Counted from the first letter of the stretch, positions 20,287 through 23,294 are shown. The stretch is 64,000 bases of DNA from Convolutriloba macropyga (GCF_964194025.1 NC_134477.1:14570001-14634000), one strand, 5' to 3'. Made by a program: numbers and translations. The notes: generated from the sequence alone by a model not told the origin.

Positions 20287-20625
20287 CTAATCACTCTCTG
20301 AGAATTTTTTTGATTTTTTGAGACTGCAGCTACAACTTTGACCATTCGTTTCTAAACTGGAACCAGGCTGCAACTTCTTTTTGCCAGAGCTGCTCTGCTC
20401 GTTCGCAAATTTTGAGAGAGGAGGGATTCTTCTAATAGCATCAATATTTTCTCCCACTTGCTCCAATTCCTGTATTGAGAGAGTGAGTTTTTGGTTGAAA
20501 CGAAATTCGTTGTCTGGGTTTTCTTTTTTGAAAAGTTTCAGCGATATATAGGTTCCAGTATTATCATATGTTTTCACACAGGCAACCACATATCGTTTTT
20601 CAGAATGCGCTAAGTTTTAGAACAT
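20287..20625 (-). CDS. PC4/Sub1-like ssDNA-binding protein, 5' end disrupted at the arm boundary
   Basis: KRYVVACVKTYDNTGTYISLKLFKK...EFRFNQKLTLSIQELEQVGENIDAI parallels the PC4 pattern (RYVSVRDF...IDIREY...GISL..EQW..L...I..I). Upstream reads ATG TTC TAA. Confidence 0.6.
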
Positions 20626-23294
20626 ATTTTTTTATCTTTCGATTATATAGAAAAGCTGACCAAAAGTTTTCACGACCTGACAAACTAACACAACAAATCA
20701 TTAACTGCAACAGTGTCTTCAAAGTTTGAACATGTCTCCGGTGGCAATTATTCTGAAAGAAGAGGCCAATCCCGATTTGAGAACAATAGCATATGAAACT
20801 TACAAAAAGAGAAAGTTGTTATTGTTAAACAAGAGTTGCGGGACAATGAGAGGGTTACAATTAACCACATGGCGCTACCAATGGTAATTTTCGACTACAT
20901 TCAGTCATTCAGATTTGAAAAGGCGCTGATGAAAGGAGCACAGCACACGATCGATCATGTTAGCGGTTACGTAAGAGAATTTGTTTTCAATCCAGAGACG
21001 ATATATGAAAATGTTAGGGAAATTCTTTACAACTATGATATCAAAGAGATTTCTCTATACGAAAATCAGGAGGGCTATTGGAGGAACCTGGAAATTATCG
21101 ATAGTTTTTGGCGGATTCCAAATAGCCCCGAAAGTCCAGACATTACGATTCGGTCAATTTCTCCCCTACCAGACTCAACGCCAACTCCCTCAACTCCCAA
21201 GGTAGCGGAAGTTTCCATAATTGCCAGCAGCAGTCTTGAGACGCCACCAGTGAGCCTTTGCTTTGCACCAAAGAAACGAAAACTTGATATCAACTTCTAA
21301 TACTCATTTAAAGACATTGTTTCTTTTGTTTCTGAGATCTTCTAGTGTGAAATTTATTTTGTTAGTATTGTTTGTTCCGTGTTATATAGCCTAACATTTC
21401 TTTCCATTTTTCGTCTCAACGCACATTGTTCCACTTGAAATTGAATTTTATGCTTTCACTACACTTTCAATTTTTACACAGTAAAGACTATGCACATTCT
21501 ATTGAACGCACTATATCGTGATAGAAATCAAAGTATTCTTGAGACGACGACATAATACTTTCTTTTTAAACAAAAATTCAAACTTGTGACCACACCTTGT
21601 CTTTGACAGTAAAACAACACTTGTTCAAACATGTGCGAGACAGTAAAAAAACTCGAACTCGACTGACCAATCAGAGAGTCAGAGACGAGCACACTGAATT
21701 GCTTATGGTAATAAAGGAGACCACACCTTGTTTTTGACAATAAAACAACACTTGTTCAAACATGTGCGAGACAGTAATAAAACTCAAACTCGACTAACCA
21801 ATCACACTGAATTCCTTATGTAATTGAAAGACACAAGTTGGCACATGTAGTAGACAAAACAATTCCTAAAACTCGGCTAACCAATCACAAAGGCCGAGAC
21901 CAAAACTTGCGAAACAAAAACTCAAAAACAAACTTTGTCATATGCACAAGTTTAAAATTAATCTTCAGTCAGCTCTCAGCAAATCAGAGGTCGGCAAAAC
22001 AAGTCCAGATTGGATAAAAATAGATAAACATTATAGACATACAGCTATAGTTATTGTTAGTGCTATGAAATTAATAAGAGAACAAAAAATAGAAAACGAA
22101 AAATACACTGCTCATACAATCATTTCGCCTAAGTTACGCAGTAAAATTCAGTCGCACATCAGTTTTTCCAGTTAAAATTTTGTCATTTTTTATAATTTCC
22201 CAAGTTTTACACTATTTTACGTGATCACATTTGCATTCTCCCTCAAACACCTCGTGTTACACAATTTACCGGTCTGCACCTATTGTCATTCACATTGCAA
22301 AACAATTTGTGCTTAATGGAATTGTTTTTGTGGAAGTCATTTCTCGATTTCTAAATCTCCCGTCATTTAAACGTGGTAGATGAATTGCTTTACCATACAT
22401 TTTCAAACACTTTTTCAGTACTTTTTCGGAACGTTTCACATAGTTTTGAGCATTTACTTTGTCCGTTTCATACGTATATTTCTTCCTTATTCTCTGCAAA
22501 GTTGCATTCTTTTCACCTCTGACGCCGCAAACTTACCAGACACAAAAATTCTCAATTTGGAGCCCTGGCACTTAAGTTTTATTGGTTTTCTAATCTGCCC
22601 ACACTCCCTAATCTGGGATAACATATGGTCAATAAAACTATCAAATTAAAACCAGATGTTGGATCAAAACCAGCAAGATTGGACTCCATTTTGGTTTAAA
22701 TGTAGATATATGAGATGAAACTTATAGAATATAGACATAAAACTTATCAGGAGATCGAAATAAAGAAAAGGTAAGTCAGTTATATGTTTTTCAAAAACCC
22801 ATAAACAGTCTGTTTGACTAAAAAAGGTTTAAGAGTTTTTAAACTTTAAAATCAACTTAATGGACCCCAAGAAATTGCAAAATTTTTTCAAGTTTTTCAA
22901 TAATTCCACTAAACTGTGAAATTTGTACAATTTTTTATCCCCCGCACAAAATAGCTGGAAATATCCTAAGTTTTTACCCACCAAACAAAATTGGCAAAAA
23001 TTTCACAAGTTTTTCTCATCGCACAAAATTGACAAAAATTTTACAAGTTTTTGTCCCCCACAAATTTGAGAAAATTTTAAAGTTTTTGTCCCCGGCACAA
23101 ATCGAGAAAAATTTTTACAAGTTTTTGTCCCTCTGCCAAAATTGAGAGACAAAATTTTTCGACCTCAAAAATGTACCTCACGGATCGTCACGGGGGGGGG
23201 GGGCTCCCCACCCGTTACAAAGCGTGTACACGGATCGTCACGGGGGGGGACGCCCCCCCCCCCCGTTACAAAGCGTATATTTAGGCTTACTACT
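20611..23294 (-). repeat. Right inverted arm (TIR) of Maverick, ~2.68 kb
   Basis: Reverse complement of 8722-11561, with two deletions of tens of bp relative to the left arm. Confidence 0.93.
20732..21300 (+). pseudogene. Right-arm copy of the 191-aa arm protein, frameshifted near 20810
   Basis: Translation matches 10875-11450 with several substitutions; the frame breaks in the A-run near 20805-20815. Confidence 0.75.

Follow-up and report, generated by a model that had tools for sequence, protein, structure and literature searches.

The closest described relatives of the element analyzed here are the Mavericks (Polintons) of animals, whose TIRs in vertebrates measure 46 to 1,447 bp in the accessible text of one survey (PMC8097293). 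The element lies in a 64,000-nucleotide stretch of the Convolutriloba macropyga genome (NC_134477.1); this whole stretch is called the window, and positions are counted from its first nucleotide. It shares with the Mavericks of that text the AGT-AGT ends, a 6-bp TSD, an rve integrase, an A32-type ATPase (present in sibling copies), and the size class, but it differs from them in that three families have no pPolB and in that the TIRs are longer and hold a gene start (PMC8097293). Butterfly polintons, as the available portion of the report describes them, can have 2-kb gene-containing TIRs, and some lack polB and are nevertheless active (bioRxiv 10.1101/2025.02.07.637071). The element is like these in its long, gene-duplicating TIRs and in a spread without polB. 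The same portion of the butterfly account contains no junction anatomy, dating, or helper, whereas in C. macropyga the events recur, are dated, and the termini match those of pPolB families.

Two systems outside the Mavericks offer further comparisons, each within the part of the source that is accessible. In orthopoxviruses, one end of the linear double-stranded DNA becomes an inverted duplicate of the other (bioRxiv 10.1101/2022.09.16.508251). Three siblings of the window element (L043/44, L049/50, and L026/27) directly fit such a terminal swap. The orthopoxvirus swaps delete genes at the receiving end, whereas the event in the window involved no deletion and became fixed in a host chromosome. 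Expansion of the plastid inverted repeat follows the same principle of homology-anchored copying past the repeat edge, which pulls single-copy genes into the repeat, but it takes place in an organelle genome and has no integration step (PMC6134119). The rearrangement of host genes driven by Polinton TIRs is, in the accessible text, a different process (PMC11414722). For Mavericks, we found neither dated arm extensions nor terminus-matched helpers in the largely open literature, and the Pannagram extended data may be relevant here.

The element and the junction in its right arm

The element occupies 8722..23294 (14,573 bp, AGTAGT...ACTACT) and has the TIRs with (AGT)2//(ACT)2 ends and the 6-bp TSD of a Maverick/Polinton (Table 1). 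It is a member of a polymerase-less Maverick-derived family, here called family 1, whose typical copy is about 13.7 kb. Of 30 elements whose two ends were both typed, 21 have a perfect TSD. Three terminal haplotypes, alpha, beta, and gamma, occur among family-1 copies, and the two termini of the window element are of different kinds, with 5 differences in the first 25 nucleotides.

Table 1. Features of the element and its flanks, in window coordinates
Feature	Position	Strand	Remark
Left TSD, TACATA	8716..8721	+	6 of 6 positions match 23295-23300
Left native TIR, 1.95 kb, terminal haplotype alpha	8722..10671	+	Inner edge with PC4-like 5' stub
Extension donor: left interior with arm ORF	10672..11561	+	
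Arm ORF, 189 aa	10875-11444	-	
CCAAT-bearing 74-75-bp repeats upstream of left arm ORF	11791..12021	+	CCAAT at 11856, 11930, 12004
Phospholipase-like ORF (143 aa) and broken DEDD-exonuclease-like ORF (presumed)	12352..13260	+	
Deletion joint, 2.2-kb ATPase-bearing segment gone	13544..13553	.	Sibling comparison
Internal tandem repeats, 1,125-bp units, templated filler	13435..16192	+	
Integrase (broken) and presumed minor capsid, core protein, major capsid, and protease genes	15803..19605	+	
ORF199, conserved HYH motif	19668..20267	-	
PC4-like gene, 3' part, from codon 14	20287..20612	-	
Native TIR inner edge, 10 bp kept on PC4 side	20603..20612	+	Repeated at 21504-21513
Junction, 2-bp TA microhomology with left 11560-11561	20611..20612	+	
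Extension: inverted left interior, frameshifted arm-ORF copy 20732-21300	20611..21503	+	
Right native TIR, PC4-like start (ATG 21553) and CCAAT repeats, haplotype beta	21504..23294	-	
Right TSD, TACATA	23295..23300	+	Perfect 6-bp duplication

Integrase, ATPase, and pPolB aside, the gene labels are assumptions of ours. The minor capsid, core, major capsid, and protease labels were assigned from motifs and position, and the phospholipase-like and DEDD-exonuclease-like ORFs are presumed to be such from motifs, without a library match. Pfam rve scores over the cut-off in the integrase of a sibling (L060); the window copy is broken. The protease ORF matches only RickCE_cat, under the cut-off. The capsid ORFs have no Pfam, PHROG, or PDB match; capsid ORF relatives are named F54H12.2-like, which we take to be a Maverick capsid label. 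The label PC4-like is that of the preliminary description, and the gene has no Pfam, PHROG, or PDB match. An 89-codon frame is open in both arms (9360-9629 and 22380-22649), and the termini carry G/C-run palindromic repeats that are able to fold back (8745-8830 and 23187-23269). Outside the element, the window contains a degenerate 1.2-kb palindrome (49032-50208) and two direct-duplication sets (50885-55739 and 28985-33490).

The two arms (8722-11561 and 20611-23294) show inverted identity from the termini inward (91.0% and 91.9% in two blastn blocks), which stops at ttctaaaactta (11561/20611). In global counts, the outer part of the arms differs by 90 substitutions in 1,782 positions (5.05%) with 13 gaps, and the inner 0.9 kb by 45 in 889 (5.06%) with 2 gaps. 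In siblings, the PC4-like gene continues directly into the 1.95-kb TIR, and its start codon lies inside that TIR. In the window, a stretch of about 0.9 kb from the left interior of the same element has been inserted 10 bp inside the TIR edge via a 2-bp microhomology, splitting the PC4-like gene. The junction cuts this gene in codon 14 and leaves its start codon 0.9 kb farther out, inside the native TIR, and the arm-ORF copy that begins 120 bp from the junction is frameshifted near 20808. Since nothing separates the PC4-like gene from the 1.95-kb TIR in the closest relatives, the event at 20611 made the element about 0.9 kb longer, without loss of a gene at the junction. A 601-bp junction probe matched as a whole only here, with 39 of the 40 scored matches covering one side or the other. 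Patterns for the native PC4/TIR join and the left repeat edge have 73 and 88 matches, respectively; the junction pattern, at 2 mismatches, has a single match in the genome, so that the window junction was never amplified, which weighs against the model favored below.

Much of the anatomy given in the preliminary description is borne out. It had reported inverted arms that hold a whole arm ORF and end at 11561/20611, in agreement with blastn and with the ORF in the left arm; the left arm ORF does keep its upstream CCAAT block, with its three repeats; and the in-frame TAA said to occur also in the left arm derives from left-arm sequence. Fusion to the PC4-like gene about 120 bp upstream of the arm-ORF ATG was also correctly placed, except that the cut is at codon 14 and not in the first codons.

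ATPase and pPolB across the lineage

The window element lost its ATPase through a separate 2.2-kb deletion: siblings carry a 2.2-kb ATPase segment between window positions 13544 and 13553, and the sibling ATPase matches Pox_A32 over the cut-off (E 6.6e-7). The absence of pPolB, in contrast, extends across the lineage. Searches with tblastn gave no pPolB match in the window, none in 118 of 119 stretches around family-1 matches (the one match was in a chimera), and none in 10 copies from two sister families (5 each). The 34 siblings mapped end to end have neither room for pPolB nor a match to it, and the arms of families 1 to 3 hold no pPolB remnant. With pPolB missing, the element is therefore a polymerase-less derivative and not an autonomous Polinton. 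Large inserts in two siblings (L052 and L053) were rejected as candidates for pPolB, as they encode frames that are retrotransposon-like by a motif-based label.

The two sister families have the same gene order as family 1, and two family-2 copies have TIRs that are 99.5-99.8% identical. TIRs in the three related families without pPolB are 1.4-2.1 kb long, against 2.84 kb in the window copy. FastTree trees of the capsid and of ORF199 group the polymerase-less families (97 and 100), and the ATPase tree places family 3 with the pPolB relatives. A single origin of the polymerase-less families is likely.

The genome contains many further pPolB families (3,891 and 5,515 first-look candidates), which were mostly unrelated among the 10 first sampled. 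The first 10 Pfam-found pPolB elements were rejected as relatives, being distant, with integrases of 26-39% identity and no DNA match. True pPolB-bearing relatives were reached via a chimera (L128). They are 17.4-17.7 kb long (17.7 kb in L215/L216), have TIRs of 189-193 bp, and run from a short TIR through phospholipase-like, exonuclease-like, ATPase, integrase, and capsid genes to protease, ORF199, PC4-like, arm ORF, pPolB, and the other short TIR. The mid-TIR 1.4 kb of the window element (8900-10320) is without a match in these relatives. In family 1, the arm ORF faces the left end and is separated by 200 bp from the TIR edge with its PC4 stub. As pPolB follows the arm ORF in the relatives, the family-1 loss maps to the old TIR edge at 10671, and we infer that the edge 10671/10672 may be the old junction where pPolB was lost. 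Most simply, the gene block would first have been inverted, and the pPolB end would then have been overwritten at 10671 by a copy of the end on the PC4 side.

ORF199 was considered as a polymerase replacement. Its model (pLDDT 89.9) weakly resembles HUH Rep nuclease domains, in that Rep domains fill the first 8 VIA rows (at best Z 5.7, with rmsd 3.2 over 79 aligned residues), with no Foldseek match at E<=0.001. H56 and H58 are conserved, and no tyrosine is conserved at 90%. Because homologues with 25-44% identity are present in the pPolB-bearing relatives, ORF199 is not a replacement for pPolB. Neither ORF199 nor the arm ORF has a usable Atlas match; the arm ORF belongs to no Pfam, PHROG, or Atlas family, and in the pPolB-bearing relatives its homologue sits immediately upstream of pPolB.

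Donor, age, and origin of the arm extensions

The donor of the extension is the element's own left arm, since the left and right extension rows of the window are sisters (100/99) in a tree of 22 homologous segments that includes 20 sibling rows. The own left arm is also the nearest over the full 890 bp (5.06%, versus 5.38% and more), and the mid-TIR arms are likewise sisters (support 97). The end branches are unequal, 0.036 for the left (10672-11561) and 0.017 for the right (20611-21503). With gap edges masked, the extension has 43 substitutions in 869 positions and the TIR 36 in 943 (p=0.25), counts that allow an age error of roughly 30% either way. All five datable family-1 extensions, the window included, have extension/TIR divergence ratios near 1 (1.30, 0.94, 1.32, 1.28, and 1.11; none significant). 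Among 13 comparisons of tandem duplications with their own TIR pair, 6 were significantly younger, 1 was older, and 6 were alike; with 7 of 13 not younger, the contrast with the extensions is partial. The tandem units of the window (13435-16192) are much younger than the arms (4 substitutions in 1,106; 0.36%). These units combine pieces from three widely separated parts of the element, and their joints contain short templated fillers that we take to resemble polymerase-theta repair. Where they can be dated, the extensions thus date to the insertion, and many tandem repeats, the window's included, came later. This dating fits an origin before, during, or soon after integration alike.

Extensions of this kind recur. 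Independent inward extensions occur in 5 of the 34 siblings mapped end to end, a fraction that overstates the rate because copies were partly picked for odd spacing; measured against the 73-88 pattern matches, the rate is at least about 7%. The left-to-right extension at C2:37.12 Mb, about 395 bp long, has its joint 17 bp inward of the edge and a filler of about 14 bp, right-to-left extensions at C6:23.9 Mb and C2:16.18 Mb are accompanied by gene loss, C9:11.99 Mb is a complex case, and C10:2.20 Mb is a snap-back-like palindrome. The masked TIR segment yielded no date for the last, which seemed younger when compared over a short TIR overlap of 427 bp. One of the 10 sister-family copies (L175/L176) went through the same event as the window element: its extension measures about 730 bp, and the joint falls in the PC4-like start, about 45 bp inward of the edge; in this young copy, the extension has 0 substitutions in 576 positions and the TIR 3 in 1,328, and the TSD is perfect. 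In the three left-to-right extensions, the joint lies 10, 17, and about 45 bp from the native repeat edge on its inner side, and the donor points differ. Pieces of the element also occur in tandem arrays, with a 490-bp unit repeated about 15 times in L137 (L137:2325-10000), 1.2-kb units in L139, and whole-TIR repeats in L140.

We favor, with moderate confidence, a model in which a template switch on free DNA, shortly before or during integration, lengthened a normal 1.95-kb TIR into the long arm by copying about 0.9 kb of the left interior of the same element. A strand copying the left repeat would have run on for 0.9 kb past it and then re-paired via the repeat with the other end, where its unmatched 3' tail, instead of being trimmed, would have primed by microhomology next to the repeat edge. 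The joints would lie near the edge because homology anchoring holds the strand, and a tail would be kept only if it primed close by.

The strongest competitor is host double-strand-break repair after integration, with a break inside the right edge, invasion of the left repeat, 0.9 kb of copying, and microhomology joining, which we regard as a serious but rather unlikely explanation. It yields the same anatomy, leaves the TSD in place, and accounts for near-edge joints, a geometry common to a template switch on free genomes and to host repair; it is also the model stated, in the accessible text, for plastid inverted-repeat expansion (PMC6134119). Host-side repair can carry out arm-to-arm copying, as inverted host flanks, which need a chromosomal context, are present in 3 of 25 family-1 copies (65 bp in L028/L029, 103 bp in L051/L052, and 159 bp in L095/L096), and the younger tandem repeats with templated filler in the window element fit such repair as well. 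The TSD is lost in two of the three copies with inverted flanks, and L052 has a second terminus of another haplotype. Breaks spread over time, however, would have given many younger extensions, whereas the five datable ones and the 0/576 case are all as old as the insertion, which favors a template switch at or before integration over later repair. Discordant terminal haplotypes and a chimeric joint found at three loci (see below) also point to mixing before insertion.

It is very improbable that the extension came from another copy, either by ectopic recombination or through insertion of a second element at the repeat edge. The right terminus does belong to another haplotype, and one sibling scores slightly above the own left arm on a short probe, but over 890 bp the own left arm is nearest, the extension rows are sisters at 100/99, and the mid-TIR arms are sisters at 97.

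Copy-back and snap-back defective viral genomes, which in the papers found concern mostly RNA viruses, have self-templated inverted ends in which the native end is replaced. The preliminary description had proposed one such event, in which an inverted copy of the left end replaced a native right end carrying pPolB and ATPase. Several observations agree with it: the donor is the same molecule (100/99), one sibling has a snap-back-like palindrome, end replacement with gene loss is found in the siblings L043/44, L049/50, and L026/27, and the pPolB-bearing relatives have short TIRs of 189-193 bp, with pPolB beyond the PC4-like gene, as had been expected. At 20612, however, there is no gene loss, 10 bp are duplicated, the net change is a gain, and the ends are not identical. 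The PC4-like gene is joined to the TIR at 73 native sites, and the native TIR of siblings is not short but 1.95 kb. The ATPase does not belong to the right end; it sits mid-left in siblings, between exonuclease and integrase both there and in the relatives. A single copy-back run to the terminus fits badly with two termini that carry different family haplotypes. What stands of the proposal is an inverted copy of the left end, from the own left arm and of the age of the TIR pair, with no native end replaced. Replacement at 20611 is thereby refuted, and we find the proposal as a whole hardly tenable. It survives as a model of the junction at 10671: pPolB is absent across the lineage, so its loss is older and lies at another junction, where copy-back end replacement may hold.

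Least probable of all is an assembly artefact. In its favor, no contig in five public runs bridges 20612, although such runs cover less than one-third of the stretch's words (best share 0.29 among six runs, none of them RNA) and the samples may lack this copy. Against it, arms that are 5% diverged with 15 gaps are unlike a collapsed assembly, the TSD is intact, and parallel events exist elsewhere.

Termini shared with pPolB families and what they may imply

The termini of family 1 recur in elements that carry pPolB. Alpha is common to the pPolB-bearing L207/L208 and L211, gamma to the pPolB-bearing L215-L220, and beta, present at 10 sites, to mini-chimeras with pPolB. Nucleotide similarity to the full-length pPolB relatives ends after the first 70-190 bp of the TIR. 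Family 2 served to test the prediction that such ends are shared with pPolB elements. Its 18-nucleotide terminus has 153 matches in all, 100 of which were analyzed for pairing. Among the matches listed, 8 of 32 family-2-type facing pairs enclose pPolB and span 17.37-17.45 kb, and most of the other 24 span 12-14 kb; the similarity between these pPolB elements and family 2 is confined to the first 93 bp. No pPolB partner with family-3 termini was present among the loci sampled. That the polymerase-less families share only the terminal 90-170 bp with pPolB families suggests helper-dependent replication in trans. After the older loss of pPolB at 10671, the lineage would have been replicated by the pPolB families that have these terminal base pairs in common with it.

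A chimeric mini-element is present at three loci (L183:4228-10000 with L128:1-5533, L205/L206, and L209/L210). It consists of the family-1 left TIR and 240 bp more, joined at left position 10915, the same point at all three loci, to a right part from a relative with the protease tail, ORF199, PC4-like gene, arm ORF, pPolB, and short end. The mini-chimeras are without capsid or integrase, and one of the three has a perfect TSD. A second shared joint, near left position 10900 and leading into divergent sequence, is found in L184, L188, L189, and L130, and is apparently that of another lineage using the family-1 TIR. The alpha and beta termini of one element and the shared chimeric joint are signs of mixing among free genomes before insertion.

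We tentatively propose, as a possibility that the similarity of the ends brings to mind, a lasting polymerase-less Maverick satellite lineage that arose by end-to-end copying, swapped in the terminal origins of an active pPolB family, and forms a two-component system with the mini-element. If so, the lineage would have kept capsid and integrase through at least three families and well over a hundred insertions. The mini-element, with at least three insertions, and the satellite would together be a two-component Maverick heading toward a segmented genome, and the arm of the window element would be a later instance of the same copying.

In the accessible text of the vertebrate survey, Maverick virions are reported as unobserved, and surveys that require integrase and pPolB together, as that one does, would miss such lineages (PMC8097293). 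How polintons without polB spread is left open in the available portion of the butterfly report, and the match over the terminal 90-170 bp offers an answer that can be tested in genomes (bioRxiv 10.1101/2025.02.07.637071). Insertion-dated junctions would be fossils of the free phase, in which ends copy from each other and families exchange termini. The single copy in the window is a variant of known end rearrangements, and its value lies in the family context, where arm copying that dates to insertion has happened repeatedly in a lineage without polymerase, and where the ends of this lineage follow those of pPolB families.
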